A DNA stretch of 64,000 bases. Source: an uncultured Verrucomicrobiota bacterium (GTDB lineage: Bacteria; Verrucomicrobiota; Kiritimatiellia; RFP12; UBA1067). Made by a program: the position numbers and the translations under genes. Positions 21,220 to 61,455 of the stretch are shown piece by piece (the stretch's first letter is position 1; every line of letters starts with the position of its first letter). The stretch is taken from positions 24,790 to 88,789 of the forward strand of contig CAMOFK010000003.1 of NCBI GenBank assembly GCA_946613265.1. Reading direction: 5' to 3'. Below the pieces are notes generated by a model that did no database searches, was not told the origin of the DNA, and was given only the letters and a program-made list of their open reading frames with translations.

Positions 21220-22307
21220 AGATTGAACTTCACGAAATCAAGGTGCGCGACCTTGTAAAGGGCTACAAGGATAGTGGCGACGAGGGAGTTGTCGCCTACG
21301 ATGGCAAACTTGATGTTCGTCCTCCATACCAAAGGGAGTTCATCTACAAGGACAAGCAAAGAAACGCGGTCATAGACACCATTATGAAGGGCTTCCCCCT
21401 CAATGTGATGTATTGGGTTTCGTGTGGGGATGGAAGGTTCGAGGTGATGGATGGGCAACAACGAACCATATCAATAGCCCAATACTTCGACAACGAGTTC
21501 TCCTTCAATATGCGCTACTTCCACAACCTTGAAGATGACGAGCAAGAGAGGTTCCTTGACTACACGTTGATGGTTTATTTCTGCGAGGGGTCGGACAGCG
21601 AGAAGCTGGATTGGTTCAGGACAATCAACATAGCAGGCGAACAACTCACCAACCAAGAGTTGCGCAACGCAGTTTATCATGGCCCATTCGTCCAAGACGC
21701 GAAGAAGTGGTTCTCAAAGGTGGGTGCGCCTGCGGCGAAGATTGGAGGAGACTATCTCGTTGGCGCGAGGGAAAGGCAAGACTACCTTGAAACTGCCATC
21801 AAGTGGATTTCTGATGGAGCGATAGAAGAGTATATGGCGACCCACGCCAAAGACCCCAATGCCAATGTTCTGTGGAACCACTTTCAATCAATCATAGGTT
21901 GGATTGAAGCGACATTCGTCCATACCAAGGACAGATTGAAAATCCTCAAGGGCGTTGATTGGGGAACTCTCTACAAGAAGTATGGGAGCAAGGTTCTTGA
22001 TACAAAGGCGATTGAGAAGCAAATAGCCAAGCTCCTCATGGACGACGATGTGACGAAGAAGAGTGGCATCGTCCCCTATGTGCTTGGCGAGGGCGAGAGG
22101 TGCTTGTCCATACGCGCATTTACTGAAGCGCAAAAGCTCGCTGCCTACACAAGGCAAGGTGGCGTGTGTAAGATGTGTGGCAAGAAGTTCAACATCGACG
22201 AGATGAACGCAGACCACATCAAGCCTTGGTCGAAAGGTGGGCATACCACGCCTGACAATTGCCAAATGCTTTGCTCGACTTGTAATTTCACCAAAGGGGC
22301 GAAGTAG
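21216..22307 (+). CDS. DUF262 (ParB/GmrSD-N-like, DGQQR) domain fused to C-terminal HNH nuclease
   Basis: ATGA overlap with the methyltransferase stop. Motifs RPPYQREFIY, MDGQQRTISI, and C-terminal CKMCGKKF...ADHIKPWSKGGHTTPDNCQMLCSTCN. Confidence 0.75.
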   Translation: MKIELHEIKVRDLVKGYKDSGDEGVVAYDGKLDVRPPYQREFIYKDKQRNAVIDTIMKGFPLNVMYWVSCGDGRFEVMDGQQRTISIAQYFDNEFSFNMRYFHNLEDDEQERFLDYTLMVYFCEGSDSEKLDWFRTINIAGEQLTNQELRNAVYHGPFVQDAKKWFSKVGAPAAKIGGDYLVGARERQDYLETAIKWISDGAIEEYMATHAKDPNANVLWNHFQSIIGWIEATFVHTKDRLKILKGVDWGTLYKKYGSKVLDTKAIEKQIAKLLMDDDVTKKSGIVPYVLGEGERCLSIRAFTEAQKLAAYTRQGGVCKMCGKKFNIDEMNADHIKPWSKGGHTTPDNCQMLCSTCNFTKGAK

Positions 22308-46800: not shown

Positions 46801-47140
46801 CCAGCTTGCCGCCGTTTTCGCCGCCCACGAGACGGTCGCGCGAATAGTACGTGCCGCTCTTGTCGCGAAGCCGCCGCGCGCCAGCGGCGATTCGCGCGTG
46901 CGCCGACGAAAGGCGCAGGCGCAGCTCCTGTATCGTCGAAGCGATCACCGCTATTCTCGCCGCGCCCCGCCCGGCGGAGCAGGTGTAGGCGATGTCGGCC
47001 AGCGGGACGTCGCGAACGCGATCGATGAAGCCGATCACGTTCGCGATCTCCTCCGCGAGCGCGTCGTCGTCCGCCGCGGAAACGACAATCAATTCACTGC
47101 CTGCTGCATCCACTGAACTTCCCCCGGTATAGAGCAGCAT
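43805..47140 (-). CDS. 1111-aa PKS-derived protein: KS-AT linker + AT-like + PS-DH-like (both with substituted catalytic residues) + Sfp-type 4'-phosphopantetheinyl transferase
   Basis: AT-like region has AFIFPGVISF, GVVGCVGGDLAA, RPFNTPA and FLEVGPRG. DH-like region has EPFLGDFAIGS and NPMLLHAIAGG. PPTase region has GCDVESV and FWCAKEAVSKALG. Confidence 0.65.
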   Translation of the reverse strand: MLLYTGGSSVDAAGSELIVVSAADDDALAEEIANVIGFIDRVRDVPLADIAYTCSAGRGAARIAVIASTIQELRLRLSSAHARIAAGARRLRDKSGTYYSRDRLVGGENGGKLAFIFPGVISFYPDMLRDIAVQFPVCRAAFDELEEAMNDNEEFTPSNFIFPPAPYYRHDADIFSSGAYAQALVAVYSASDALARLMEAFKISPDGVVGCVGGDLAAVLKSGAAGTPRRHERVAALKAIYRIVDKAVSHGGLAKTVMLSVLMRHPGEDGAVVAAMPKGKIAPTMEFSPRRRVYAVDPEYADEAVKMFADAGIRTMRMAIDRPFNTPACSSLVPAIRKFADGWMKSEPLIEVYSCGEAAQTPRRVRAARAETAGRWAKSVRFAETISRMYEDGYRVFLEVGPRGLMTSAAEDVLKGREFATIALDSLNRRGILQLQHALAQLVAAGVPCDVGALFAGRKVRKLDFAAALSLEVRRDAELRLTRVFPRMTLLGAERRLTGAQYLAEPKGRGAKAAERKAAIKKEAMRNRQFDTGAMQPLVSDADELESSPGVMCEIVKEFTLANEPFLGDFAIGSSQLSYSDSQLKGLLLLSVPVGIEIAAECAMRVMPNRNLAAVEDFVCRRRVAFKDGRLKLFIRAERVASSEPGAAAIKVKIREDSPDSAWTWPVMEATVVLTQKVPPRVPFSAAPLTRPRYVHWSGREIYPAMLACGRRLRAIVFAETWGEEGLDYTVAVQPSNGAVAAAAYPIWAVNPMLLHAIAGGFELWRSQERFPGAFALPLRLRRLDVLGALPAEGAELNCYMRLTGVTPQSHLCDITVTGGDGNVIYSISGWEEQTERVPQEYCQLLLQPANAFLTQKLSADAIGNPATDVATAFITDVPYALFERNEALWLKIMSHAILCDAERRVIADMKGSVARRTEWLVGRLAAKEAVRRFLRDFYQARWNDADVQICPNPDGKPVPIGDWRRFLTAKIDIAIAHTAQFVVALAASNARVGCDVESVTRDLSEEFISGVFTSEELELAAQSSNASQAFIRFWCAKEAVSKALGTGIRYSPKELVVTAYHANTGRMTARLEGAWVDAFKNFKGRDIEVSSRIMRDHALAFCFIPELMFN

Positions 47141-47150
47141 CCATGCGCAG

Positions 47151-48086
47151 CTACAGCCTCGCTACGCCGTCGGCTACTTCGCGGCGGTACGCCGCGACGG
47201 TGCGGCGCAAACCTTCGGCCAGCGGGATCGACGGCTTCCAGCCGAGCGAACGGATGAGCGAAGTGTCGCAGAGCTTGCGCGGCGTGCCGTCGGGCTTCGT
47301 CGCGTCCCAAACGATGCGCGCGCCGGAGCCTGTCGCGTTCTTCACGGCTTCGGCGAGTTCGCGTATCGAAACCTCTTCGCCGCTGCCGACATTCATGACG
47401 TCGGGAGGATTGTCGAGCGAAAGCGCGAATAGGCAGGCGGACGCGAGATCATCGACATGGAGGAATTCGCGCAGCGCGCTTCCCGTCCCCCAGAGCGTGA
47501 CGGCGTCGCCGGCGGTCTCGAATTTCCGTATCAGCGTCGGCAGGACGTGGCCGTGGACGATATCGTAGTTGTCGCCCGGTCCGTAGAGGTTGGTGGGCAT
47601 CAGCGAATGGTAGAGGACGCCGCTTTCGCGCCGCAGGAATTCGCAGAGCTTCAAGCCGGAAATCTTCGCGAGCGCGTATCCCTCGTTCGTCTTTTCGAGT
47701 TCGCTCGTCAAAAGCGCGCTTTCCGGGATCGGCTGCGGCGCAAGGCGCGGATATATGCACGTCGAGCCGAGAAACAGCAGGCGCTTCACGCCGGCCTTGT
47801 ACGCCCCCCAGACCGTGTTCAGCGCTATCATCTCGTTCTCGTAGAGGAACAAGGCGTTCGCCGCGCTGTTCGCGCCGATCCCGCCGACGCGCGCGGCGGC
47901 TATCACCGCGACATCCGGCTTCTCTTCCTCGTAGAACGCGCCCACCGCGCAGGCGTCGAGCAGATCGAGCTGCGAATGGCTGCGCACGACGACGTTCTTG
48001 AAGCCGGCGGCGTCCAGCGCGCGGCACACCGCGCTGCCGACCATCCCCTTGTGGCCGGCTACGTATATCTTGGATCTGGCGTCCAT
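47151..48086 (-). CDS. fcl: GDP-L-fucose synthase
   Basis: ATG at 48086 (the track start at 48098 is GTG). [13 protein letters not shown]...GSTCIYP...YALAKI...NLYGPGDN. Confidence 0.9.
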
Positions 48087-48132
48087 GCTTTTCTCCACAT
48101 TGGTTTGTCCGCTAACATTGCGCCGCGGCGTC

Positions 48133-49140
48133 TCAAACTTCGCGAAGCTTGCGCTCTTTCTCCGCGAGCGCGAGATCGGCTTCGACCATGAGTTTGACGA
48201 GTTCTTTGAAAGTCACTCGCGGCTGCCAGCCAAGCTCGCGCTTCGCTTTCGTCGCGTCTCCCAGTAGCTGGTCCACCTCCGTGGGGCGCGCGTAGCGCGC
48301 ATCGTATTCGACGTATTCGCGCCAATCGAGGCCGACGGCGCCGAAGGCCGCTTCGAGAAACTCCTTGACCGAATGCATCTCGCCGGTGGCCAAGACGAAA
48401 TCGTCCGGCTTGTCGTGCTGGAGTATCCTCCACATGCCCTCGACGTAATCCACCGCGTAGCCCCAATCGCGCAGCGATTCGATATTGCCCATGTAGAGCT
48501 TCTTCTGGAGACCGGCCTTGATGCGCCCGACCGCACGCGTGATCTTCCTCGTCACGAACGTCTCGCCGCGCCGCGGCGACTCGTGGTTGAAGAGTATGCC
48601 GTTCGACGCGAACATTCCGTACGCCTCGCGATAGTTCCTGACCGCCCAGTACGCGTAGAGCTTCGCGACGGCGTAGGGCGAGCGCGGGTAGAACGGCGTC
48701 GTCTCCTTCTGCGGGACTTCCTGGACGAGTCCGAAAAGCTCGGAGGTCGAAGCCTGGTAGAACTTCGTCAGCTTCGCGCGCCCCGTGAGCCGTATCGCCT
48801 CCAGAAGCCGCATCGTCCCCAGCGCGTCCACGTCGCCCGTGAATTCCGGGGAATCGAAAGAAACGCGCACATGGCTCTGCGCCGCCAGATTATAAACTTC
48901 GTCCGGCTGTATCTCGTAGATCAGGCGCCCGAGATTGGATGAATCGGCCATGTCGCCGTAATGGAGGAACAGCTTCACTCCGTTCACGTGCGGATCCTGG
49001 TAGAGATGGTCGATTCGCTCCGTGTTGAATGTCGAGGCTCTGCGTATCAGCCCGTGGACTTCGTAGCCCTTGGAAAGGAGCAACTCGGTCAAATAGCTGC
49101 CGTCTTGCCCTGTTATTCCGGTTATCAGTGCTCTTTTCAT
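48133..49140 (-). CDS. gmd: GDP-mannose 4,6-dehydratase
   Basis: [14 protein letters not shown]...QASTSELFG...[12 protein letters not shown]...FNHESPRRG. Confidence 0.95.
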
Positions 49141-49168
49141 ATCGTTTGCCCTTTTCGTGTCGTTCGTT

Positions 49169-49177
49169 ATTATACCA
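49169..49177 (-). promoter_or_regulatory. Extended -10 promoter (TGGTATAAT) for the gmd-fcl operon
   Basis: The minus strand reads TGGTATAAT, about 29 nt upstream of ATG 49140. Confidence 0.5.
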
Positions 49178-49330
49178 AATTTGCGCGGAGCGCGTCAAAG
49201 CCGCCGCCTTTGTCCTGGCCGCGAACCGATCGTACCGCCCCCTTGCAGGCGGAATTCCGATCCTGTCTTCCGGCAAGCGGGAAACGAGACGGCGGCTCCG
49301 TCCATTCGGGAACTTGTCTTTCTTCCCTTA

Positions 49331-49363
49331 TATATAGAGAGACGCGATATATAGGGAGACGCG
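49331..49363. repeat. 17-bp tandem direct repeat TATATAG(A/G)GAGACGCG x2
   Basis: Copies at 49331-49346 and 49348-49363, with 15 of 16 positions identical. Lies in the gmd/rph divergent intergenic region. Confidence 0.8.
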
Positions 49364-49484
49364 GCATTCGGCAAAACCAAAAAACGCCGCGGCGGCGAAT
49401 CAAGCCGGGAAAATTTGATACAATATGCGCCGGCGCTGCGAACGCACGCGCAATCCATCCGCAAAGCCGGGGCAGAAGCAGAAC

Positions 49485-50180
49485 ATGAAAAAAGCCAATG
49501 AACTGAGGGAAATCGAATTTGTCCGCGACTTTACGAAGTATGCGGCCGGAAGCGTTCTGATCAAATGGGGCGGGACGTGGGTCCTTTGCACCGCGAGCGT
49601 CGAAAACAAGGTGCCGCCGTTCCTCAGAGACACCGGGCGCGGCTGGGTCACGGCGGAATACGCGATGCTTCCGTCCAGCACAAGAGAGCGCAAGGAACGC
49701 GACATCAAAAAGCTGAAGCCGGACGCACGCTCCACGGAGATTCAGCGCCTCGTAGGGCGCGCGCTGCGCGCGGCCATCGAACTGGAGGCGCTGGGCGAAC
49801 GCCAGATCGTCATCGATTGCGATGTTCTCCAGGCCGACGGCGGGACGCGCTGCGCCTCCATCACCGGCGGTATGGTGGCGCTGGAACTCGCCGTGCGCAA
49901 GCTCCTCGCGGAAGGCGCGATCGAGCGCAATCCGATAATCCACCGCGTCGCCGCTGTTTCCGTTGGGATCTGCGAAGGCAAGCCCGTGTTGGATTTGGAC
50001 TACGCGCACGATTCGTCTGCCGACGTCGATATGAATATCGTGATGACGGACGACGGGCGCTTCGTGGAAATGCAAGGCACGGCGGAACACGAGCCGTTCA
50101 CTCCGGAGCAGCTCGAAAAGCTGCTCGCGCTCGCCCGCAAAGGGCTGCGCAAAATCTTCGAAATCATGGGCAAGATGTGA
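49485..50180 (+). CDS. rph: Ribonuclease PH
   Basis: ORF trimmed to ATG 49485. AGSVLIKWGGTWVLCTASV...GWVTAEYAMLPSST...DCDVLQADGGTR. Confidence 0.9.
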   Translation: MKKANELREIEFVRDFTKYAAGSVLIKWGGTWVLCTASVENKVPPFLRDTGRGWVTAEYAMLPSSTRERKERDIKKLKPDARSTEIQRLVGRALRAAIELEALGERQIVIDCDVLQADGGTRCASITGGMVALELAVRKLLAEGAIERNPIIHRVAAVSVGICEGKPVLDLDYAHDSSADVDMNIVMTDDGRFVEMQGTAEHEPFTPEQLEKLLALARKGLRKIFEIMGKM

Positions 50181-51142
50181 ACAGTCCGCTCTACACCGTC
50201 CTCATAGTCACGTGGAACGGCGACGGCCTGCTCGAAAACTGCCTCCGCTCCATCGCCGCCGCGACGGCGCCGACGCCGCATTGCGTCGTCGTGGACAACG
50301 CCGCGCTCGAATCCACGCGCGAGCTTTGCGGGCGTTTCGCTTTCGCCACGTACGTCCGCGCCCCGGAGAATCTCGGCTTCGCCGGAGGGAACGATCTGGG
50401 ACTGCTGTATTGCACGACGAAATACGTCTGCCTGCTCAACAACGATACGATCGTTCACGAAGATTCATTCGCGCCGCTCGTCGATTTCTTGGAGCGGCAC
50501 GATAATATCGCGGTTGCGCAGGGGACGATGAAACTCCCGAACTGCGGCGGCACGCTCGACGATTGCGGCACGGTGCTGAAGTGGTACGGATTGCAGCGCC
50601 ACCGCTATTTCAGGGCGCCCGCGCCTCCCGCGCTCGCGCCAGTCGCGGTGTTCGCCGCCAAAGGCGCTTTCATGATGATCCGCAAAGCCGTAGTCGCCGA
50701 AACCGGCGGGACGCTTTTCCACGCCCATTTCAAGAGCTACTACGAAGAAACGGACTTCTGCCACCGGGTGTGGCTTGCAGGCCGCGAAGTATGGTTCGTG
50801 CCGACTCCGCCGATCGACCATCTTCTCGGCGCCACCTCGTCGCGCTTCGACAATGCCGCAATCTGGCGGCAGTATGTCGCGAACATCTTCTTTTCGTTCT
50901 CCGCGAATTTCTCGTTGGAGGGCAAGGCGAGGATACTCGTCCCCTTCTGCTTCGTCTATCTGGCGTTTACGCTGCTCTGCCTGGCGAAAGGCAGGTTCCG
51001 GCTCTTTCTGGCGATGCTGCAAGTGCCGCTCGTGAACTTCAAGCGGCGCAAAGAGTTGCGAGACGCGAAAGCGGCCGTCAAGCACTGCAGGAAGCTCCCG
51101 GATCGCGAAATCCTCCGGCGCGTCATGCGTGCGCGGGACTGA
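50177..51142 (+). CDS. Glycosyltransferase family 2 (rhamnosyltransferase-like)
   Basis: GTG at 50177 inside ATGTGA, overlapping the rph stop. YTVLIVTWNG...VVVDNAALEST...NLGFAGGNDLG...LNNDT. Confidence 0.65.
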   Translation: MNSPLYTVLIVTWNGDGLLENCLRSIAAATAPTPHCVVVDNAALESTRELCGRFAFATYVRAPENLGFAGGNDLGLLYCTTKYVCLLNNDTIVHEDSFAPLVDFLERHDNIAVAQGTMKLPNCGGTLDDCGTVLKWYGLQRHRYFRAPAPPALAPVAVFAAKGAFMMIRKAVVAETGGTLFHAHFKSYYEETDFCHRVWLAGREVWFVPTPPIDHLLGATSSRFDNAAIWRQYVANIFFSFSANFSLEGKARILVPFCFVYLAFTLLCLAKGRFRLFLAMLQVPLVNFKRRKELRDAKAAVKHCRKLPDREILRRVMRARD

Positions 51143-51169
51143 GCGCCCGCCGCCGCGGATGCAGAAATA

Positions 51170-51178
51170 TGGTATAAT
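51170..51178 (+). promoter_or_regulatory. Extended -10 promoter (TGGTATAAT) for the eight-gene exported-protein operon
   Basis: Perfect TGnTATAAT. Leader of about 55 nt with a GGGAGA Shine-Dalgarno before ATG 51240. Confidence 0.5.
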
Positions 51179-51239
51179 AATGCGCACGCACGGCGGGGAT
51201 CCGCCGCGCCGCAAAAACCGGAAACACGGGAGACGTGAC

Positions 51240-51623
51240 ATGAAGAAAAACATACTTGCCGCTCTCGCCGCGGCGTGCGCGCTGGCGCTCGGCGGTTGCA
51301 CAAGCCTGCACACCGCGCCGGACGACCGCCGCGTCACTGTCGCGCCGGCGCTCGGCGATTCCGTCTGGGTGACCGACGTGCGCATGGCGAAGGGACGTTC
51401 GCAATGCTACACGCTGCAAGCGAACATCGCAAACAACACTTCCAGCGTCGCGCAACTGGAGTACTGCGTAATCTGGCTCGACTCCACGGGAATGGAGATT
51501 TCCACGCTCTTGAGCGGCTGGCAGTTCGCGTCGCTCGCGCCTCGCGAAGTACGCGGCCTGACGGCGACGGCGCCTTCCCCGGATGCGTGCGACTTCCGCT
51601 TCTACGTGCAACCTGCAAGGTAA
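51240..51623 (+). CDS. YcfL-like (DUF1425) lipoprotein
   Basis: Lipobox in MKKNILAALAAACALALGGC. LEYCVIWLDSTGMEI...DFRFYV resembles the YcfL pattern. Confidence 0.55.
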   Translation: MKKNILAALAAACALALGGCTSLHTAPDDRRVTVAPALGDSVWVTDVRMAKGRSQCYTLQANIANNTSSVAQLEYCVIWLDSTGMEISTLLSGWQFASLAPREVRGLTATAPSPDACDFRFYVQPAR

Positions 51624-51662
51624 AACGCATCTCCACCAAACTCCAACAAACGAGGACCAGAC

Positions 51663-52271
51663 ATGATCGCCAGATTTGCAACTTTCGCGGTGGCCGCGCT
51701 TCTTCTCGCTGGCTGCACAACGCCAACTACGCGCATCGACATCCGCAACGACCGCGGGCCGGCAGTCGCCGCGCTCGACTATCGCGACATCAAGGAAGCC
51801 GTAAGCGAGCTCGCGCAGAGCCTTTTCAGGACCGGGCGGCTGAATCGCGCGGACGGCAAACTCAACGTGCTGACCGTCGGCAATGTAGAGAACGACACGA
51901 TGCAGCATCTCGATACGGACATCCTCACCAACTACCTCGTCGAAGAAATGGTGAACTCCGGGCAAGTCCTCGTATCTTCGGCGATCTCGCACGGCGCTTC
52001 GCAGCGCGACGAGATGATCGGCGCCGTGCGCTCCGTGCGCGGCGACCCGGAATTCAACCAGTCCACCGTCGCCGCGCAAGGCCAGCTCGTAGATGCGAAC
52101 CTATCGCTCAAAGGCAAGATCGTGCAGCGCGAGCTTCGCATGGACGGCGGCGACAAGCAAGTGGAATACTACTTCTCGATGATGCTCACGGACACCCACA
52201 CGGGGCTGAGGCTCTGGCAAAAGCAGCACCTCATCGGCAAGCGCACGGATGCGCGCACGCCGACATGGTGA
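51663..52271 (+). CDS. LpoB/FlgO-like (COG3417-type) lipoprotein
   Basis: Lipobox LLLAGC. LNVLTVGNVENDT...LTNYLVEEMVNSGQ...YYFSMMLTDTHTGLRLW is the typical LpoB-fold pattern. Confidence 0.6.
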   Translation: MIARFATFAVAALLLAGCTTPTTRIDIRNDRGPAVAALDYRDIKEAVSELAQSLFRTGRLNRADGKLNVLTVGNVENDTMQHLDTDILTNYLVEEMVNSGQVLVSSAISHGASQRDEMIGAVRSVRGDPEFNQSTVAAQGQLVDANLSLKGKIVQRELRMDGGDKQVEYYFSMMLTDTHTGLRLWQKQHLIGKRTDARTPTW

Positions 52272-52317
52272 TGCGCCGCACCCCCATCAACACAACACGC
52301 GAAACCAGGCGACTACG

Positions 52318-53586
52318 ATGAAAAAGGCTTTTCTACTCTTGGCGCTTTTTACGGCGGCTCTCGCAAACGCCGCACCGGTGACAGCGCGCGGCACCGGGCG
52401 CAACGCGGACTACCGCGCGGCGATCTACGACGCTCTCGCGCAGGCGATGAGCCAGGTCCAGGGGCTCAGCCTCCAGGAATCCAGAGAATCGCTTCTCGAC
52501 GCGCTTGAACAATCAAAGCGCTCGACGGGGAAAGAGGACTTCACGCTCAGCGATGCGCGCGAAGCCTTGAAGCAATCCGTCAGCGCAAAGACCGAAGGGC
52601 GGATTCTCGGCTACGAGATACTGAAAGAGGAGTTCGACCAGCAGACGAAGACCTGGCGCGTCGAAGTCGAAGCGAAGATGCCCGGCCGCTACATCGTAGG
52701 GCGAGATCCCGACAATCTGCGGCGCATGGTCGTAATGCCCTTCCACTCCTTGACGCCGGAGTTCTCCCTCGACGGCGCAAAAATCGAATGCGCGAAAGGC
52801 TGCGAAGAAATCGCAGCCGCCCTCGACACCTGCCTGACGCATACGCGCAAATTCACGATGCTCGACAGGCGCTTCAACACCGAGACGCTCGCGGAGCTTT
52901 CGCGCCTCGACATGGCCAACTCCTCCCCCGCAGATCTCGGACGCTTCGGCCAGCTCCTCGTAACCGATTACATGGTGATCGGCACGGTGAAATATCTGCC
53001 GCGCGCCGCGGCCGTCTCCAACTCCTACACCGGCATGACGGCCGCGCAGGATTCCACCTTCCTCGAAATCTCGTACCGCGTGCTGCTGGTCCCGACTTCA
53101 CAGCTCAAGTGGGCGGGCGTCGTGAAAATCCCATACTCCGCATGCGGCGGCGCGACGGGCGAAGAGACGCTCTCCAACGCCATCGAATACGCCGCGGAGA
53201 CGATATGCGAAGAGATAATATCCAACATCTATCCTATTCGCGTCGCCGCGCACGCCGCATTCGAACTCGTCCTGAACCAGGGCGGACGCAATGTCAGGAT
53301 CGGCGATGAATTCGAAGTCTTCAAGCGCGGCGCGCCCATCGTCGATCCTACGAACGGCGAATCGCTCGGCTTCACGGAAGACATGATCGCGCGCATTCGC
53401 GTCACTCGCGTGACGCCGAAGGCAAGCTACGCCATCGTGACCGAAGGGACGCCGTGCGGCGATATCGAAATCGGCGCGATCGTCCGGCGTCCCGCCTGGG
53501 GAGGCGCGGGCGCGTACGCCCCGCAAGGCGCTGCGACGCCTGTGCAGGTCGCTCCGGACGGCGGAGTGAAAGTGCCGTGGATGTAA
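52318..53586 (+). CDS. Secreted protein: LPP20-like N-domain + CsgG/HfaB-like core + C-terminal beta domain
   Basis: SPI signal ALANA-AP. GTGRNADYRAAIYDALAQAMSQVQG (LPP20-like). RMVVMPF...THTRKFTMLDR...LLVTDYMVIGTV (CsgG-like). Confidence 0.45.
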   Translation: MKKAFLLLALFTAALANAAPVTARGTGRNADYRAAIYDALAQAMSQVQGLSLQESRESLLDALEQSKRSTGKEDFTLSDAREALKQSVSAKTEGRILGYEILKEEFDQQTKTWRVEVEAKMPGRYIVGRDPDNLRRMVVMPFHSLTPEFSLDGAKIECAKGCEEIAAALDTCLTHTRKFTMLDRRFNTETLAELSRLDMANSSPADLGRFGQLLVTDYMVIGTVKYLPRAAAVSNSYTGMTAAQDSTFLEISYRVLLVPTSQLKWAGVVKIPYSACGGATGEETLSNAIEYAAETICEEIISNIYPIRVAAHAAFELVLNQGGRNVRIGDEFEVFKRGAPIVDPTNGESLGFTEDMIARIRVTRVTPKASYAIVTEGTPCGDIEIGAIVRRPAWGGAGAYAPQGAATPVQVAPDGGVKVPWM

Positions 53587-53642
53587 ACATCCCGCAAACC
53601 GCAGAAACAGCTTCGACAAAGAAAAGGAAAGGAAGACAACAT

Positions 53643-55334
53643 ATGAAGCTAGCAGCAATGCCTGTATGCGCATTGGCGGCGGGCGCCGCCTTCTGCGCGT
53701 TCGCCCAGGAAATGGGGGAAATCGTCGAGCAGCCCGCGGAGACGCCGGCGCAGCTCGCGCAAGATGCCGTCCAGACCGTGCAAGAGAGCGCGCGGGCCGA
53801 TCAGGGCGTGCAAGTCGTGGAAGAGGCGCAGAAAACGCCGCCCGCGGAATACACCGGCGCGAAGAACGCCAACGACGCGATGGTAGAATGGATCGGCGCG
53901 CGGGGCTACATCGAAGGCTATTCCACGGAGCGCGGATACTTCCTGCAAATCGGCGTGGCGCGCGACAACTCCATGAATCCCGTCGAAGAGGACTTCATGA
54001 CCAAGCGCGAACTGCTGTACCGCGAGGCGCAGCTGCGCGCGAAAATCGAAATCAGCGCCCTCGTGGAGCGCGAAGCCAGCGGCGCCAACTGGAAACAGGG
54101 GCTTGACGAAAAGCAGGTCAAGGAGTTCGAGGCGCGCTTCGCAAACGAAATCAACGCCATGAACGAGATGAAGCGCAAAGTCGCCAAGCTCATGGTCGCC
54201 CTCGATACCGCGGAGACGGAAGCGCTCAAGGGCGTCACGACGACCGACCGCCTCAACAGACTCGTCGATGCAGCGATAAAGAAACTCGACAGCTCCTACG
54301 CCGCCGGAGAAATCGCCGCCGAAAAGCAGGCGCGCTACGAAGAAATCCGCAGAGCCTACGAAAGCGCCAAAGCCGCCGCGGACGAGCTGGAGCTGAAGAA
54401 GAGCGACCTCTTCCCGGATCAGACTGTCGGCGCGAAGATCGACACCGCCGCGACGCTCCGCCTGCACGGCGTCGTTCCCCTGCATACCATCGAGTCCTAC
54501 GACGGCAAGGAATACCAGATCGCCGTGGCGGCGATCTGGAGCCCGAAGCTCGAAGAGCGCGCGATGAAGATCCTCGCGCGCAAAGAAGTCGCGGCCGGCA
54601 AACCGACGGAAGACCGCACTCTCCAAGAGTATCTGCGCGCGAACAGAGAGGCGCTGGCCGCGATGGTCGGCTCTCGGCAGTTCTTCGACAAGAACGGGAG
54701 GCTGTACTTCTACGGAATAAGTGCGCAGGATCTGCCTGAAGACGCGATCGAGAAAGACGAGGCGATGACCTTCGCGAACGCGATGGCCATACAGTCCGTG
54801 CTCATGTCGCTCTACACCGAAGGGACCGGCGTGACCAAGGCGTCCGCCGCGCTCGCCAAGCGCAAGAAACGCGCCGGCGAAGTCGTGAAGACGCTGTCGG
54901 AGAACATGTACGAATCCACTCCGCAGAATATGATCGTCAGCGGGCTTGGCAAGGTTTACAGCTTCGAGACCGAAAGCCCCGTCACGCACAAGCCCATCTA
55001 CATCTCCGTAGCGGCGGTGGATGCCGCGCTCGCCGCGAAAGCGCCGGCGATCAAGCGCGCCTGGGATGTCAATGCGTCGAACACCGTGCGCACGCTCAAC
55101 GCGATCGCCGGCGAGCGCCAGGGCGCCGAAGACGCCTACCAGGACGCGAAGAACTCGAAGGCCGAATTCGAGAACGCGCGCAGGAACGCGCGCGATGCAA
55201 TCAACGCTGAAGTCAAGCGCGCGCGCGGCGGCGCCGTCCAGACCGCGCCCGTCGCGCCGCGCGCCCCGCAGAAGCCCGGCAAAGCCTCGCAGGGAATCTT
55301 CGGCGCGGACGCCGCGGTCAGCGACGACTTCTAA
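53643..55334 (+). CDS. Hypothetical secreted coiled-coil protein (563 aa)
   Basis: Signal peptide ending AFCAFA-QE. Long helical regions. I recognise no family. Confidence 0.55.
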   Translation: MKLAAMPVCALAAGAAFCAFAQEMGEIVEQPAETPAQLAQDAVQTVQESARADQGVQVVEEAQKTPPAEYTGAKNANDAMVEWIGARGYIEGYSTERGYFLQIGVARDNSMNPVEEDFMTKRELLYREAQLRAKIEISALVEREASGANWKQGLDEKQVKEFEARFANEINAMNEMKRKVAKLMVALDTAETEALKGVTTTDRLNRLVDAAIKKLDSSYAAGEIAAEKQARYEEIRRAYESAKAAADELELKKSDLFPDQTVGAKIDTAATLRLHGVVPLHTIESYDGKEYQIAVAAIWSPKLEERAMKILARKEVAAGKPTEDRTLQEYLRANREALAAMVGSRQFFDKNGRLYFYGISAQDLPEDAIEKDEAMTFANAMAIQSVLMSLYTEGTGVTKASAALAKRKKRAGEVVKTLSENMYESTPQNMIVSGLGKVYSFETESPVTHKPIYISVAAVDAALAAKAPAIKRAWDVNASNTVRTLNAIAGERQGAEDAYQDAKNSKAEFENARRNARDAINAEVKRARGGAVQTAPVAPRAPQKPGKASQGIFGADAAVSDDF

Positions 55335-55440
55335 GCACGCGGCGGCAAGGCGGAAGCGGACGCGCCGGGCGGCGCCCGGACGCGTCCGCGCTTCTTTCGA
55401 CCCACGAAACATTCTTGCGGCGAACATGTCGGCTTTCACA

Positions 55441-56802
55441 ATGCGAAAACTCCTGCATGGCGGCGCCTGCGCGGCGGCGCTGGGCGCGTTTCTCGCGGCG
55501 AACGCCGCGCGCGGCGCTTCGCTGGCGACGCTGACGAACCGCTACAATCTGAACATAAAAGACGAAGCATCGGGAGTGTACGAGTGGGCGGAGGAGGGGC
55601 TGCTCTTCGTGCAAGTCAGGCTCGCGGAAGCGAGCGGAGACGCCGCAGAGGAAATGGATGCGCAAATCCTCGCCGAAGAGCATCGCCTGCTTTTCGAGTG
55701 GCTGGCCGCGCAGGCGACGGCGGAGCGCAAGGATCCTCCGCTCCCGCAGGGCATGGAGCGCCTTCGCGCGCTCGTTCGCGCGCACATGCCGACGTGGGAG
55801 TACGATGCCGATTGGAACTACAACCTCAAAGGCCCGCATTTTTCGCGGCATGAAATCGGCGAGCGCGTCTGCTGCGCCGTGTATGAAAAGGACAAAGTCC
55901 TCGCGACGATGCCGCCGTCCTTCAAAAAAAGCGCGCCTCCGGAAATATGGCTGCGCGGCGCGAAGGAGCTTTTCTCCTCCAGGGCGCAAACGCTCGCGTC
56001 GCGTCCTTTCCTCTGGGAAGCGGGACTCGTGGATCTGCTTGCGCTTTCTCTCGACGACGGCGCTTCGCCCGCCGGCTGGGTGCGGGAATTCGGCGACGCC
56101 GCTGCCGCGCACTGGAAGGAATACACGGCCGTCGAAAGCGAACTCGCCGCGTACATGGAGAACTCCGCCACGGCGAAGGCGATGGCCGCGGAGAAGCTCC
56201 GCCTCGAAACCCTGCCGGACGAAATCACCTACGAATGGGGAGCCGTAAAGCCGAAAATCGAAAAGACGCAGACGACGGAAACGACGACGAACGCGATCGA
56301 CGGCGCGCTCTTCGAAGTCGTCTCCACCACGAAGACCACGGAGCGCGTCACGCGACTCTTGCGAAAAGTCGTGACGCCGCGCGCGGTCGATCCACGCTTC
56401 GAGAAACTCTTTCTCTCCGCAGGCGCGATGGCGAATGCGGCAGCTCCGCGCACGGCGAAAGGCCGCGAAGCCGAAGCCGCGTTCCTCGCGAAAAGCGCGC
56501 TCCTGCCGGCGCAGCGCGAACGCGCGCTTGTCGAAGCGCTGCGCGAGAATCCCGGCGACAAGGCGCTGTGGAATCTGCTTGGCCGTGCAATGTCCGCGCG
56601 CGGCGACACGCTTGGCGCGCTCGCGTGCCTGCGCAACGCGCTGCGTCTCGACGCCGCCTACGACTACGCCCTCGCGAATCTCGCCGGAATATACGACCGC
56701 CTCGGCAGGCACGCGCTCGCGCAAAGCGCGGCGATCGCCGCCTACGCCTTGGCAGACAACGATTGGTGCAGGAAAGAAGCCCTGCGCATCCTGGAAAAAT
56801 AG
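55441..56802 (+). CDS. Hypothetical secreted protein with C-terminal TPR-like repeats
   Basis: Alternative ATG at 55426. Signal-like N-terminus. C-terminal ALWNLLGRAMSARGDTLGALACLRNALRLDAAYDYALANLAGIY is TPR-like. Confidence 0.5.
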   Translation: MRKLLHGGACAAALGAFLAANAARGASLATLTNRYNLNIKDEASGVYEWAEEGLLFVQVRLAEASGDAAEEMDAQILAEEHRLLFEWLAAQATAERKDPPLPQGMERLRALVRAHMPTWEYDADWNYNLKGPHFSRHEIGERVCCAVYEKDKVLATMPPSFKKSAPPEIWLRGAKELFSSRAQTLASRPFLWEAGLVDLLALSLDDGASPAGWVREFGDAAAAHWKEYTAVESELAAYMENSATAKAMAAEKLRLETLPDEITYEWGAVKPKIEKTQTTETTTNAIDGALFEVVSTTKTTERVTRLLRKVVTPRAVDPRFEKLFLSAGAMANAAAPRTAKGREAEAAFLAKSALLPAQRERALVEALRENPGDKALWNLLGRAMSARGDTLGALACLRNALRLDAAYDYALANLAGIYDRLGRHALAQSAAIAAYALADNDWCRKEALRILEK

Positions 56803-56832
56803 AACCCGCTAGCGCCGCGCCGCATCCCGCAA

Positions 56833-57834
56833 ATGAATTCCATCGCCGCCATAGCGCTCGCGTTCGCAGCTTCGCTCGCCTTCGAACAGGAAACGGCGAT
56901 CGACGACGCGCTCGCCGCGAAAAACATCTGCCGCGGCTACGACGCCGCCAGGCAGGCGTTCACGGCGTACGGCACGGCGTCGGCGCGCCGCCCGGAAGAT
57001 ATGCCGGCTTCCGAGGAATGGGAACTGCGCAGGCGACTCTTCTTCGCCGCGCATGCGAAAGCGCGCAAGGAAATCGCCTTCGCCATGGCTGCGCAGATGC
57101 AGGCGTTCGACGCGACCGCGCGTTCCTCCGGAGAAGGCAGGCGGACGAAAAGCGCGCTCGCCGGAGTTTCCGCGTCGTCCAGAGACGACGCGATAGGCTT
57201 CGCGCCGCTGGCGGTGCGCTGCGGCGTCCGCGACGGCGCATGCACGCTGACGCTGGCTCTCGAGTGGAGCGAAGAGCGCGAACGCCGCGCGCGCGCTTCG
57301 CTCGCCGGCGCTCTCGCCCCCTCCCCGGATTGGGAGCGCGAGATGAAAGAATATTTCGCGCGGCTCGGCGAAGATTCTCTCGCGCCCTTCGGGCTGTTCG
57401 AAGATTCTCGCGGCTTCGTGCATTTCTTCGGCGCGGATATTGCCGAACACGCCGCAGAGGAATCGCGCACGCGCGCGAATATCGCGGAAAAGCGCGCGCA
57501 GACGCGCGCGCTCGCCGCCTTGCAGGCCGCATGCGACGGCACAGCCGCGTTTTCCGCGCACGCGCTCGCCGGCGCGGCGCTCGCGGATGGCGCGGAAGAC
57601 GACGCCAAAGCCATCGCCGGCGCGGCGAAGCGCGCCGCGCGCGGCGCCATGCGCCCTTTCGCGCCAGTGGCCGAAAAGCCGCTCGCGGCGCATGCGGGAT
57701 GCGCGTCGCGCAGATACATCGTCTATGCCGCAGTTCCGGAAGCGACGCCGCAAGAAGCCGGCGAGGCCGCGCCGCAAACGCCCGCGCGCGTACAAATCTG
57801 GAATCCCGCGACGCAACGCTTCGAACAACGCTGA
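56833..57834 (+). CDS. Hypothetical secreted protein (333 aa)
   Basis: Signal peptide MNSIAAIALAFAASLA-FEQ. No recognisable domain. Confidence 0.5.
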   Translation: MNSIAAIALAFAASLAFEQETAIDDALAAKNICRGYDAARQAFTAYGTASARRPEDMPASEEWELRRRLFFAAHAKARKEIAFAMAAQMQAFDATARSSGEGRRTKSALAGVSASSRDDAIGFAPLAVRCGVRDGACTLTLALEWSEERERRARASLAGALAPSPDWEREMKEYFARLGEDSLAPFGLFEDSRGFVHFFGADIAEHAAEESRTRANIAEKRAQTRALAALQAACDGTAAFSAHALAGAALADGAEDDAKAIAGAAKRAARGAMRPFAPVAEKPLAAHAGCASRRYIVYAAVPEATPQEAGEAAPQTPARVQIWNPATQRFEQR

Positions 57835-57880
57835 AATCTCCGCCCCCCCCGTCCACGACAGGAAAGGATCAATAACAACT

Positions 57881-58414
57881 ATGAAGAGAATAGTCTGCAC
57901 AGCATTCGCGGCGCTCGCCGCAGCGGCGGCATCCGCGCAAGTCCTGACGCCGCAGACAGGCGTCGCCAACGACCACGGCAACCAGCCGGAACTCGCGCAG
58001 CATCACGTCGTCTTCCAGCCGCGCACGGCGGAAACGGGCTACGGCTACGACGACGGCATGACCGTCGCGGGCTTCACGTTCCTCGCGTGGGCGGCGCCGA
58101 ATTCCTCCTGGGACGTGCACGGCGTGCGCTTCAATTTCGGCTGGGGGGCGCATCGCGAAATGATCGGCCTGGATACGGGCTTCTTCGGCTCGTGCGCGTA
58201 TCTCGGCGGCGTCGCCGCCACGATCGCGGGCAACTACTCCAGCGGCAACACCGACGGCGTCGCCCTCGGATGCGTCAATGTCGCCGACGCGCGCATGCGC
58301 GGCTTGCAGCTCGGCATCGTCAACTACGCCGGCGAGCTGCAAGGCGTGCAACTCGGCCTGCTCAACTTCAACACGGCGGGAATAACGCTGCCGGTGCTTA
58401 ATATCGGCTTCTGA
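57881..58414 (+). CDS. Secreted Gly-rich beta-repeat protein (GxQxGxxNxA repeats)
   Basis: Signal AAASA-QV. Repeats GVALGCVNVAD / RGLQLGIVNYAG / QGVQLGLLNFN. Confidence 0.55.
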   Translation: MKRIVCTAFAALAAAAASAQVLTPQTGVANDHGNQPELAQHHVVFQPRTAETGYGYDDGMTVAGFTFLAWAAPNSSWDVHGVRFNFGWGAHREMIGLDTGFFGSCAYLGGVAATIAGNYSSGNTDGVALGCVNVADARMRGLQLGIVNYAGELQGVQLGLLNFNTAGITLPVLNIGF

Positions 58415-58442
58415 CGCCGCGAATCCCCTTCCGCGCCTGCGC

Positions 58443-59912
58443 ATGGCATGCGTCAAGAGAGTCTTCGCGGCGCTCGCAGCCGCCGCGGCGTTCGCAGGCT
58501 GCCGCACGGCCGACGACGTGATGCGCGACTACGACGCCGGCTTCGCCGCCGGCGCGTATTCCGCAGGCGCGGCGGAGACGGATTCGCTCGCGGCGAAAGG
58601 CGGCGACGACGCGCTCCTCTGGCACCAGCTCGCCGGCGCGGCCATGCGCCTGGACGGCGACGACGACGGCGCGCGGCGCAATCTCGACGCCGCCGAGCAT
58701 TGCTACGCGGCCAACGATACGCGCGGGATATTCTCGCGCGCGGCATCCGCATCGTTCGCGATGATGACGAACGACGCGATGTTCCCGTACGACGGCGACG
58801 GCGTGGATCGCGTCTTCACCTGCCTATACAAGGCGATCGACTTCCTCGCCGCCGGCGCAGAAGACAAGGCGCGCGTCGAACTGAACCGCGCCATGCAGTA
58901 CCAGAAGAACTGGCTCTACGACCGCCGCAAGGATATCGAAGCGGCGCGCAAGCGCTTCACCGCCGACTCCGAGCGCTACATACGCTCGCAGAAGGCGAGC
59001 ATCGCAGGAGCGCGCGAACGCGCGCGCCTCGCCGCCGCGCCGCTGGCCGACGCGCAATTCTGCCGGTACGTCGCGGCGAACTGCGCATTCGATCCATCGC
59101 GCGACGGGGATCTCGAGAAGCTGGCGGGCGCGAAGGCCTACCTCAACCCATACGCATTGCACCTGACGGGGCTGTTCCGGTGGCTCGCGGGAGATTCCGA
59201 CCGCAACGAACTGCGCGACGCCGCGGCGCTGGCGCGGCGTTCGCGCACCGCGCAGCGCGACGCGGCCGGGCGCAAGGCGCGCGAGACGCCGCGCGACCAA
59301 GTCTGGGTGTATATCGAAGACGGGCTTTGCCCGCGCAGGCGCGAATGGCGTTTCAGCCTGCCGCTCTGCTACATACCCGGAGCGGGGCGCTATCTGCCGT
59401 ACGTCGGGATGGCGCTGCCCACGCTGGAATACCGCGCAGCGGGCGCGGCGGACTGGCGCGTCGCCGGCGCGCCGCCCGAACTTCTCGCGGACATCGACGC
59501 GATGGTCAAGGCGGAGTACGACATATACATGAAGGAGGCGCTGGCGCGCGAAATCTCGCGCACGGTTATTCGCGCGTGCATGGAAATCGCTCTCGGCATC
59601 CTCGCCGAACGCCACAAAAACCAGGACGACTTCTGGGCGTACAAAGCCGCGCAGATCGGCGTCGCGATATGGGCGGCGGCGTGCACGAAAGCCGATTTGC
59701 GCTCGTGGACGGCGCTGCCGAAGAGAGTGCTCGTCGCGCGCGTCGCGAGGCCGCCGAACGGCCGGATCGATATTTCCTGCGGGAGGCACGCGCTGACGGT
59801 AGCGCTCCCGCCCGGCAACTCGATCGTATTCATCCGCAAGAGCGGGCCGGACGCCGCGCCTGTGGCAAAGACCGCCGTCTTCAATTCCGCGGGGCGGCTC
59901 CTGCGCCGCTGA
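58443..59912 (+). CDS. Hypothetical lipoprotein (489 aa)
   Basis: Lipobox AAAFAGC. Helical N-terminal half. No family confidently recognised. Confidence 0.55.
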   Translation: MACVKRVFAALAAAAAFAGCRTADDVMRDYDAGFAAGAYSAGAAETDSLAAKGGDDALLWHQLAGAAMRLDGDDDGARRNLDAAEHCYAANDTRGIFSRAASASFAMMTNDAMFPYDGDGVDRVFTCLYKAIDFLAAGAEDKARVELNRAMQYQKNWLYDRRKDIEAARKRFTADSERYIRSQKASIAGARERARLAAAPLADAQFCRYVAANCAFDPSRDGDLEKLAGAKAYLNPYALHLTGLFRWLAGDSDRNELRDAAALARRSRTAQRDAAGRKARETPRDQVWVYIEDGLCPRRREWRFSLPLCYIPGAGRYLPYVGMALPTLEYRAAGAADWRVAGAPPELLADIDAMVKAEYDIYMKEALAREISRTVIRACMEIALGILAERHKNQDDFWAYKAAQIGVAIWAAACTKADLRSWTALPKRVLVARVARPPNGRIDISCGRHALTVALPPGNSIVFIRKSGPDAAPVAKTAVFNSAGRLLRR

Positions 59913-59937: not shown

Positions 59938-61455
59938 ATGCAAACTCTATATCTATACGGGCCGCCGGCGTGCGGGAAATCCACGCTCGCGAAAAAGCTC
60001 TCGCGCGACTTCGCGCGCCGCGCCGTCGATCTCGACGAAGCGATCGTGGAAAAGACGGGAATGCCGATCTCGCGCTTCTTCGCAGAACGCGGCGAGCGCG
60101 CGTTCCGCGAACTGGAGTCCGCCGTGCTGAGGGAGACGAAAGCGGATATAGTCGCGCTCGGCGGCGGCACGCTCCTCGATCCGGGCAATCGCGAATTCGC
60201 CGAACGGAACGGCTTTGTCGCCGTCCTCGATGTCGATGAAGGAGAGATCGCGCGGCGCATCGCGCTCGCGAAAGGCACGCGGCCGCTTGGCGACAAGGCG
60301 GCGGAGCGCCGCGCGCACTACGCCTCCTTCCGGCATCACGCCGGCGCGGATACGCGCATCATGCTGCCCGCGCGGCTCTCAGGAGAGACGGCGGTGCCCG
60401 TCTCGAAGAGCCACATGCACCGGCTGGCCATCGCCTCGTTCCTCGCGGGCGCGGAGCCGCCGCCCGCCGCGCCCGGAGAATGCGACGACATAGCGGCGAC
60501 GCGCCGCTGCCTCGCCGCGCTCGCGGCAGCGAAAGCCGCCGGCGGGCGCGCCGTGCTGGATTGCGGGGAGAGCGGCTCGACCTTGCGCTTCCTCGCACCT
60601 GTCGCGGCGGCGCTGGGCGTGGATGCGCAGTACATCCGGCGCGGACGACTGGCGAAGCGCCCGATGCTCGACTTCTCGGACCTCGCGCCAGGCCGCCACG
60701 AGCTTGCGGGCAATGTATCTTCACAATTCGCGACGGGGCTGATATTCGCGCTGCCGCTGCTCGCGGGCGATTCGGAAATCGTGTTCTCGTCGCCGCTGGA
60801 ATCTCGCGGCTACGTGGATATGACGCTCGACGTCGTGCGCGCCTTCGGAGTGCGCATCGACGAAACGCCAAGCGGCTTCGCAATCCCCGGGAACCAGCAC
60901 TTCCGCGCCCCGCGCGGCGGCGTGCATCCCGAAGGCGACTGGAGCGCGGCGGCCTTCTGGTTCGCCGCGAACGCCCTCGGCGCGTCCATCGCCGTTTCCA
61001 ACGTCAGCGAAAATTCCCGCCAGCCGGACCGCGCGATACGCGAGCTGGCAGAGCGCGCCGCATCGCCCGAAGGCGCGACGATCGACATTTCGCAATGCCC
61101 CGATCTTTATCCCGCGCTCGCCGCCGTCGCCGCGGCGACGCCCGGGCGCACGCGCTTCATCAACGCCGCGCGCCTGCGCATCAAGGAGTCCGACAGGATA
61201 GCCGCGATGGAAAAGGTGGCCGCGGCGCTTGGCGCGGGCGCCTCTTCAACGGCCGGCGAAACCGTGATCGAAGGCTCGGGCGCGGCGCTCGCACCATGCG
61301 AAATCGATTCCGCCGGCGACCACAGGATCGCCATGGCGGCGGCGATAGCATCGACGCGCGCGGCGGGGCCGGTCATGATCCACCGCGCTTCCTGCGTAGC
61401 AAAGAGCTACCCGGAATTCTTCGAGACTTTCGCTTCCCTCGCGGCGCACTCGTGA
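59938..61455 (+). CDS. aroA: Bifunctional shikimate kinase / 3-phosphoshikimate 1-carboxyvinyltransferase (AroK-AroA fusion)
   Basis: N-terminal LYGPPACGKST P-loop...FRELE...GGG (AroK). From about aa 150, VSKSHMHRLAIASFLAG...SSQFATGL...RIKESDRI...DHRIAMA (AroA). Confidence 0.8.
   Translation: MQTLYLYGPPACGKSTLAKKLSRDFARRAVDLDEAIVEKTGMPISRFFAERGERAFRELESAVLRETKADIVALGGGTLLDPGNREFAERNGFVAVLDVDEGEIARRIALAKGTRPLGDKAAERRAHYASFRHHAGADTRIMLPARLSGETAVPVSKSHMHRLAIASFLAGAEPPPAAPGECDDIAATRRCLAALAAAKAAGGRAVLDCGESGSTLRFLAPVAAALGVDAQYIRRGRLAKRPMLDFSDLAPGRHELAGNVSSQFATGLIFALPLLAGDSEIVFSSPLESRGYVDMTLDVVRAFGVRIDETPSGFAIPGNQHFRAPRGGVHPEGDWSAAAFWFAANALGASIAVSNVSENSRQPDRAIRELAERAASPEGATIDISQCPDLYPALAAVAAATPGRTRFINAARLRIKESDRIAAMEKVAAALGAGASSTAGETVIEGSGAALAPCEIDSAGDHRIAMAAAIASTRAAGPVMIHRASCVAKSYPEFFETFASLAAHS

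Follow-up and report, generated by a model that had tools for sequence, protein, structure and literature searches.

An eight-gene operon for exported proteins in a gut Kiritimatiellia bacterium as an elaborate version of a widespread envelope module

Proteins of the LpoB, YcfL, COG3014 and DUF6844 families have been annotated piecemeal, and in pathogens they are found as antigens, adhesins or hypothetical proteins. In Escherichia coli, the genes for YcfL and LpoB are adjacent in the operon hinT-ycfL-lpoB. In Francisella, FTT1540c to FTT1537c have been described as a four-gene operon (PMC4696196), in which FTT_1540c is annotated as LpoB (PMC8149597), and FTT_1539c and FTT_1538c have been reported as immunodominant or enriched in outer membrane vesicles, OMVs (PMC10963506, PMC4207810, PMC6795709). 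A transposon mutant of FTT1538c was slightly attenuated, about 3.5-fold, polar effects being possible (PMC4696196). A Cj0091 mutant of Campylobacter was reduced in adhesion and colonisation (PMC3100323). HP0018 of Helicobacter pylori is a homologue of Cj0089; on its deletion, chains of OMVs appeared and the cells became less helical (PMC11394524). The HP0018 protein forms foci, AmiA and MltD are co-immunoprecipitated with it, and its gene is located beside that for the LpoB homologue HP1457 in other Helicobacter species (PMC11394524). In Vibrio, FlgT forms a 26-mer ring beside rings of the lipoproteins FlgP and FlgO (10.64898/2025.12.02.691832). Described here is an operon of eight genes, g1 to g8, contained in a stretch of 64,000 nucleotides from an uncultured Kiritimatiellia bacterium (contig CAMOFK010000003.1, positions 24,790 to 88,789), referred to as the window, together with its relation to these systems.

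The operon was characterised by export signals, family memberships, paralogy and co-conservation of its genes within and across phyla. Among the known versions of a widespread module it is the most elaborate, the DUF6844 gene being duplicated and genes for a TPR protein, a YcfL-type protein and an LA_2272-repeat protein added. New is the expanded variant; the kind of envelope module underlying it is already known, itself uncharacterised. By listing open reading frames (ORFs) and refining start codons, eight consecutive genes on the plus strand were defined at 51240-59912 (sizes in amino acids, aa; SPI, type-I signal peptide):

51240-51623, plus strand: g1, 127 aa, YcfL/DUF1425 lipoprotein, lipobox LGGC
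51663-52271, plus strand: g2, 202 aa, LpoB-family lipoprotein, lipobox LAGC
52318-53586, plus strand: g3, 422 aa, predicted three-domain FlgT/TsaP-like periplasmic protein, SPI signal, no lipobox
53643-55334, plus strand: g4, 563 aa, DUF6844 family by profile comparison, with coiled-coil insertion, SPI signal
55426-56802, plus strand: g5, 458 aa, exported, C-terminal TPR tail
56833-57834, plus strand: g6, 333 aa, short g4 paralogue (DUF6844 family) without coiled-coil insert
57881-58414, plus strand: g7, 177 aa, LA_2272/VC2662-type Gly/Gln/Asn repeat protein
58443-59912, plus strand: g8, 489 aa, COG3014-family TPR lipoprotein, lipobox FAGC

The eight genes were confirmed as a real operon of exported proteins. 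A preliminary description of the window had proposed eight plus-strand genes for exported proteins, and this was borne out by the ORF listing, the signals and synteny. The three lipoboxes it named (LGGC, LAGC and FAGC in g1, g2 and g8) are present and kept in homologues. Of the five SPI-type signals it listed, those at the N-termini of g3, g4, g5 and g7 were recovered; the signal peptide of g6 is less certain than those of the other seven products, because its hydrophobic N-terminus carries no positive charge. The gaps between the genes are, from g1 to g8, 39, 46, 56, 91, 30, 46 and 28 nt. From the range of 28-106 nt given before, the lower value stands and the upper one does not, since it would result from a start of g5 at its second Met and 91 nt were measured. 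Long ORFs on the minus strand are numerous across the operon region, which is typical of DNA with 62-68% GC, and nothing supports them as genes.

For g1 and g2, the families suggested previously, YcfL/DUF1425 and LpoB type, could be verified by scores above curated cut-offs. In a Pfam scan, g1 matched PF07233 with 57.4 bits (cut-off 28.3, E 1.4e-15), and its family profile detected the PDB entries 3o0l (E 1.6e-6) and 4gio (E 7.7e-4), the latter being the structure of Campylobacter Cj0090 (PMC7857515). Homologues of g1 were found in 35 related loci; the lipobox reads LALGGC in the window, and a Cys-containing lipobox is conserved among homologues with a complete N-terminus. g2 matched PF13036 with 109.2 bits (cut-off 22.3, E 2.1e-31) and, in the NCBIfam scan, TIGR02722 with 120.5 bits (cut-off 110.55), and no FlgO or FlgP family match was obtained for it. 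Its lipobox, LLLAGC, is shared with the homologues, and g2 is predicted to be an outer-membrane lipoprotein.

If g2 were a true LpoB activating a class A penicillin-binding protein (PBP) of the PBP1b type, the operon could serve the regulation of peptidoglycan synthases, the other products tuning or localising the activator. The curated thresholds passed by g2 fit this explanation, as do matches of its family profile to the E. coli LpoB structures 2mii and 4q6z (E 4e-4 to 8e-4) and the gene order of E. coli, where ycfL and lpoB, encoding lipoproteins of the same two families as g1 and g2, are neighbours too. The co-immunoprecipitation of peptidoglycan hydrolases by HP0018 points in the same direction (PMC11394524). 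However, g2 is only remotely similar to E. coli LpoB, with a profile E of ~4e-4 and no match in a single-sequence phmmer search of the PDB, no PBP gene was found in the window or in or beside the related loci examined, and in E. coli no DUF6844, FlgT-like or COG3014 genes are adjacent to ycfL and lpoB. In distant phyla, the LpoB-like gene travels with these three, a combination without counterpart in the enterobacterial LpoB-PBP1b system. A role of the operon in PBP regulation is considered rather unlikely.

According to the preliminary description, none of genes 4 to 8 could be assigned. This does not hold for four of them, g4 and g6 belonging to DUF6844, g7 to the LA_2272/VC2662 repeats and g8 to COG3014; in g5 the TPR tail already noted was recognised, the N-terminal part of about 360 aa still being without a family. 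Scans of Pfam and NCBIfam with the single sequences of g4, g6 and g8 gave no match, a direct Pfam scan of g4 and g6 against PF20891 none at E <= 1, and a PDB sequence search with g4 returned only spurious coiled-coil matches. Since g4 and a DUF6844 protein were matched only marginally by BLASTP, the relationship was established by profile-profile comparison. In distant Kiritimatiellia loci, a gene of about 450 aa is located between g2 and g3, Pfam DUF6844 is present in 17 out of 17 of its members, and their profile matches PDB entry 4qvr, Francisella tularensis FTT_1539c, over the full length (E 3.7e-46). The g4 family was aligned to these genes by hhalign at 99.0% (E 2.5e-18, 345 columns), and the g4 hidden Markov model (HMM) detected an independent DUF6844 protein with E 8e-27. 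A strict family of six g6 sequences was aligned in turn to the g4 family (hhalign 98.8%, E 4.8e-17, 279 columns). As judged from these profiles, g4 and g6 are paralogues of the DUF6844/FTT_1539c family, g4 being distinguished by a coiled-coil insertion of about 130 residues, which splits the DUF6844 domain.

The structure of g3 was predicted by AlphaFold2 (AF2) with moderate confidence (pLDDT 68.5). In Foldseek searches, the best whole-length structural match of the model was FlgT (3w1e, E 1.5e-17, 400 columns), and a chain of the LPHT ring, 8z5n_0, was detected with E 1.7e-16. Weaker matches to TolB-N, CsgG, CT253, GNA1162, PelC, HpaA and LpoB were located in the middle domain in all cases. 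When the sequence profile was compared to the PDB, residues 297-378 of the C-terminal domain matched TsaP (6ve2_O, E 7e-8), which encircles the PilQ secretin as a ring. The whole-length match to FlgT and the profile match of the C-terminal domain to TsaP therefore define g3, as modelled, as a FlgT/TsaP-like three-domain protein, the middle domain of which has the CsgG/LpoB/TolB-N fold. More than 130 g3 homologues were present in metagenomes.

A different view of g3 had been taken in the preliminary description, which saw a CsgG/HfaB-like core and an LPP20-like N-terminal segment. The latter found no support in Pfam, and the kinship of CsgG with g3 is confined to the middle domain and to the level of the fold. 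PF03783 scored 15.4 bits, below its cut-off of 20.8 (E 0.011, residues 136-227 only). If g3 acted like CsgG, HfaB or PelC and g7 as a secreted or membrane-embedded partner, the operon could specify an outer-membrane channel exporting an amyloid, a polysaccharide or a holdfast-type anchor to the cell surface. This would agree with the CsgG/PelC fold of the middle domain of g3, with precomputed PF03783 matches in some g3 homologues, with the Gly/Gln/Asn-rich repeats and conserved C-terminal aromatic residue of g7, and with the genes for a GT2 glycosyltransferase and the GDP-fucose pathway located just 5' in the window. In contrast to CsgG and PelC, g3 has additional N- and C-terminal domains and no N-terminal lipid anchor, its signal ending with ALANA before AP without a Cys, as in the homologues. 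Its whole-length match, FlgT, does not form pores, and residues 183-214, corresponding to the transmembrane hairpin of CsgG, are predicted to be helical in the AF2 monomer model, at low confidence. Partner genes are lacking as well: CsgA/B/E/F-like or Pel genes are not present, and no curli family (csgA/B/E/F) was matched by the other seven products in Pfam and NCBIfam. Moreover, the sugar genes are not conserved beside the cluster in other loci, and no g7 homologue was detected in Francisella or other gammaproteobacterial versions. The PF03783 score, the missing lipobox and the FlgT match speak against g3 as a CsgG channel, and polymer export by the operon appears quite unlikely.

The resemblance to FlgT brings up a collar like the H-ring, placed around a flagellar or secretin ring of the outer membrane, with g3 as FlgT and g2 as a FlgO-like lipoprotein. 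The structural matches of g3 to FlgT and the Vibrio LPHT ring, as well as that of its C-terminal domain to TsaP, are in line with such a collar; as for the Vibrio H-ring (FlgT, FlgP, FlgO), genes for a FlgT-type protein and for small lipoproteins located under the outer membrane occur together, and in one related locus, L004, pseudopilin genes upstream could indicate the secretin of a type IV pilus or type II secretion system. Unlike the Vibrio genes, however, the operon has no flagellar context, the Pfam models FlgT_C and FlgT_N are far below threshold for g3 (14.1 and 10.4 bits, cut-offs 27 and 28.8), and g2 belongs to the LpoB family. Gene tables of six related loci contained no flagellar or secretin genes, the neighbours in the window being only partly scanned. 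The same module is present in Francisella, which has no flagella. The lack of flagella in Francisella and of flagellar genes alongside the cluster makes a role in flagella unlikely, and for a collar of either kind the probability is judged to be very low.

For g8, a confident AF2 model was obtained (pLDDT 86.1, pTM 0.86), in which a helical, TPR-like part (residues 23-278) is followed by two beta domains with a long helical hairpin between them. In the PDB, Foldseek found no structure with E < 0.1 and only weak TPR matches, and a sequence search gave no match. A word-indexed homologue search with the g8 alignment yielded close Kiritimatiellia relatives only; an exhaustive profile search revealed 2918 representative clusters, 1268 of them at E <= 1e-10. 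The profile matched the clusters P0374, P0396 and P0309 essentially over the full length (E 1.9e-47, 9.1e-46 and 1.2e-59); in NCBI, their members carry the name COG3014 family protein, the named ones coming from Motilimonas, Psychromonas, Spongorhabdus and Endozoicomonadaceae. g7 matched NF047436, the LA_2272 surface repeat, with 44.3 bits (cut-off 25). The match to VC2662_fam (E 9.6e-8) reached 31.7 bits with a cut-off of 140, and g7 is therefore no equivalog of this family. Deletion of VC2662 in a V. cholerae ompU mutant left the colony phenotype unchanged. All of 20 aligned g7 homologues end with ...P.(I/V)N..(W/F), and the terminal aromatic residue may represent a C-terminal signal like that of outer-membrane proteins; a search of the PDB with the g7 sequence gave no match.

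In g5, the TPR tail is the sole recognisable part, no family matching the N-terminal region. Pfam TPR matches at residues 366-443 were just below threshold (best TPR_17, 24.3 bits, cut-off 24.4), and the family profile matched TPR proteins of the PDB with E 1.7e-6 or weaker at positions ~390-470 only. Kinship of g5 to g4, to g8, to DUF6844 or to a TPR protein adjacent to a DUF6844 gene in another contig (L049, see below) was considered, and the comparisons showed no relation. Likewise, g1, g2, g3, g7 and the DUF6844 proteins share no significant similarity with each other beyond their signal peptides.

To determine the distribution of the operon, one genome per species was scanned, which revealed 42 loci, and the eight proteins were mapped onto every locus by BLAST; the set for synteny comparison comprised 47 loci (L001-L047). 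All 42 come from metagenome-assembled genomes, with rumen or gut as the origin wherever one is given. The label is Kiritimatiellia or Kiritimatiellae for most of them and Lentisphaerae or Verrucomicrobia for some; a few are listed just as "bacterium", and one as Lachnospiraceae. A core of six genes, g1, g2, a DUF6844 gene of about 445-500 aa, g3, g7 and g8, was detected in all clades, with g3 identities down to 32-38%, so that the genes are indeed co-conserved in other genomes. In some loci the core is permuted to g7-g8-g1-g2-X-g3, and the order g8-g1-g2 seen in several loci is that of Campylobacter. The genes g4, g5 and g6 were found only in the subclade nearest to the window, where g3 is at least 50% identical. 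Judged by this distribution, g1 (YcfL/DUF1425) and g7 (LA_2272 repeat) appear to be Kiritimatiellia additions to a four-protein module and g5 an addition of the subclade. The operon of the eight-component machine proposed earlier is thereby upheld, its stand-alone novelty is not, as it represents a lineage-specific expansion of six- and four-gene sets. In some close relatives, a further gene occupies the place between g6 and g7 (L004, 15360-15878; L012, 16925-17452); its product is a small lipoprotein in which an LpoB domain is weakly recognised (PF13036, E 8e-12), and it is missing in the window.

Outside the Kiritimatiellia, a search starting from the FTT_1539c sequence led to a Francisella locus (L048) with genes for LpoB (202 aa), DUF6844 (476 aa, FTT_1539c), a 327-aa and a 464-aa protein, which by position are FTT1540c to FTT1537c. 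By hhalign, the 327-aa protein was related to the middle and C-terminal domains of g3 at 99.2% (E 1e-19; hmmsearch 5e-35) and the 464-aa protein to g8 at 97.1% (433 columns, E 5.5e-11; hmmsearch 7e-18). Thus, four homologous genes for exported, OMV-associated proteins are arranged as in distant Kiritimatiellia loci, with an equally uncharacterised function. In contrast to the window, Francisella has no YcfL/DUF1425, LA_2272-repeat or g5-type TPR gene, its single DUF6844 copy is without the coiled-coil insert, and its g3 homologue lacks the N-terminal domain. Genes for 178 and 133 aa located 5' of FTT_1540c were considered as homologues of g7 and g1 and rejected, the 133-aa product being a membrane protein.

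A gammaproteobacterial contig (L051) harbors genes for COG3014, LpoB, DUF6844 and a full-length g3 homologue (E 3e-43), the COG3014 protein being detected by the g8-family (A2) HMM with 1.7e-67. On another contig (L052), a COG3014-DUF1425-LpoB trio is present, matching the architecture of Campylobacter Cj0089-Cj0090-Cj0091 (PMC3100323). As for Cj0089-91 and HP0018/HP1457, lipoproteins of TPR, small Ig-like and LpoB-like character are combined in the window, g1 matching the Cj0090 structure, but no DUF6844 or FlgT-like partners have been reported there. From these comparisons, a four-gene module for LpoB-like, DUF6844, g3-like and COG3014 proteins is apparently conserved across phyla, with an apparently related three-gene form in Campylobacter. 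The versions in Francisella, L051 and L052 therefore indicate that the operon of the window is no isolated invention. Literature searches on DUF1425, DUF6844, COG3014, VC2662 and LA_2272 retrieved no functional study of the module. Directly 5' of the trio in L052 (5748-6848), a 366-aa PEGA-domain protein is encoded, which is not matched by the g3 profile and might play a role analogous to g3. In a contig of unknown phylum (L049/L050, 4600-11666), a divergent DUF6844 protein, 25% identical to FTT_1539c, is surrounded by unannotated exported proteins or lipoproteins of 230, 342, 490, 456 (with TPR tail) and 257 aa. None of these neighbours matched the profiles of g1, g3, g7 and g8, and DUF6844 may therefore have other sets of partners.

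The preliminary description spoke of an uncharacterised envelope machine, which is reasonable given an operon of co-conserved genes for exported proteins. In the reading favoured here, to which an even chance is given, the operon specifies a periplasmic scaffold, possibly a ring, tethered to the outer membrane, which would maintain the coupling between outer membrane and peptidoglycan or control wall-remodelling enzymes. Its conserved heart would be g2 (LpoB family), g4/g6 (DUF6844), g3 (FlgT/TsaP-like) and g8 (COG3014). The lipoproteins g1, g2 and g8 would fasten the complex to the inner leaflet of the outer membrane, and g3 would oligomerise via its TolB-N/CsgG-like and FlgT_C/TsaP-like domains; domains of this type build rings in FlgT, TsaP, CsgG and PelC. 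The DUF6844 and TPR proteins could bridge the components and recruit partners such as peptidoglycan-remodelling enzymes. By coupling the outer membrane to the cell wall, the complex would limit vesiculation. Physical assembly, ring formation and a role in envelope maintenance are what we infer from six-gene synteny, the cross-phylum module, the fold matches of g3, the OMV data, the phenotypes of HP0018 and FTT1538c and the export signals.

Several points weigh against a scaffold. Mutual binding of the proteins and ring formation are inferences, not direct observations. The g3 model is of moderate confidence only, and differing domain orientations keep its TM-scores to FlgT low (0.29-0.34). g2 passes the curated LpoB model, which is compatible with a plain role as PBP1b activator. 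The phenotypes of HP0018 and FTT1538c are mild, the FTT1538c insertion being possibly polar, and g8 is linked to Cj0089/HP0018 by operon architecture, size and TPR/lipoprotein character, so that this connection is suggestive.

As one conserved gene set that includes a FlgT/TsaP-like protein, the module provides a common framework for the scattered literature on pathogens (FTT1537c-1540c, Cj0089-91, HP0018/HP1457), and the proposed complex could be tested in the genetically tractable Francisella novicida and Campylobacter. The findings suggest that "LpoB" annotations beyond the enterobacteria may denote a structural subunit instead of a PBP activator. The module is also a candidate evolutionary source of flagellar FlgT and of TsaP, and that LpoB of enterobacteria and FlgT of flagella go back to an older complex without a flagellar role is an idea open to testing. 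In its most far-reaching form, speculative and on balance improbable, the LpoB-like/DUF6844/FlgT-like/COG3014 module would be an ancient non-flagellar ring or lattice beneath the outer membrane, conserved from Gammaproteobacteria to the PVC group, with enterobacterial LpoB and Vibrio FlgT as later recruitments of single parts and the eight-gene operon as its most complete form alive today.

Transcription of the operon could start at a promoter 5' of g1, and a fused gene follows g8:

51161..51178, plus strand: candidate extended -10 promoter, TGGTATAAT at 51170, read from the sequence
59938-61455, plus strand: aroK-aroA fusion with SKI and EPSP_synthase domains, neighbour and not a member of the system

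The motif TGGTATAAT at 51170, 70 nt 5' of g1, had been proposed as promoter before, and it is present. TGNTATAAT, however, has 11 matches in the window, and the motif by itself is therefore weak proof of a promoter. TGnTAnnnT was found 16-48 nt 5' of g1 in 13 out of 25 related loci, several of them with a -35 box of the TTGACA or TTGCC type, so that its position is conserved; in one locus (L011), a non-extended -35/-10 pair takes its place. A consensus promoter scan made no call at 51161..51178, because the -35 box is weak. Terminator-like matches within the operon were not above the number in shuffled sequence. The aroK-aroA gene starts 25 nt 3' of g8 and may be co-transcribed with the operon in the window. 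As a member of the system it was rejected on synteny: it adjoins the cluster in none of the 47 loci compared, the sole aroKA match (L022) being on the opposite strand 5 kb away.

On the 5' side of the operon (47151-51142), genes for a GDP-fucose-synthase-like epimerase and a GDP-mannose 4,6-dehydratase-like protein on the minus strand are followed by those for RNase PH and a GT2 glycosyltransferase on the plus strand. At 62223-63920 (minus strand), three tandem genes for products of 169-204 aa share a C-terminal motif, ...RRD/KRD-x-SY-x...N..K, and a helical-looking N-terminus; they had no Pfam match at E <= 0.01 and have the appearance of paralogues in an unknown family of secreted or filament-type proteins. 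An unusual 1111-aa fusion of a PKS-type KS-AT linker, an acyltransferase and a C-terminal 4'-phosphopantetheinyl transferase is encoded at 43805-47140 (minus strand). An island of low GC content (47%, window ~63%) at 20236-22307 (plus strand) contains the gene for an EcoRI-type adenine methyltransferase (PF13651, E 1.7e-128), followed by that for a GmrSD_N plus HNH endonuclease, and was probably acquired by horizontal transfer as a cassette for restriction-modification or defence.

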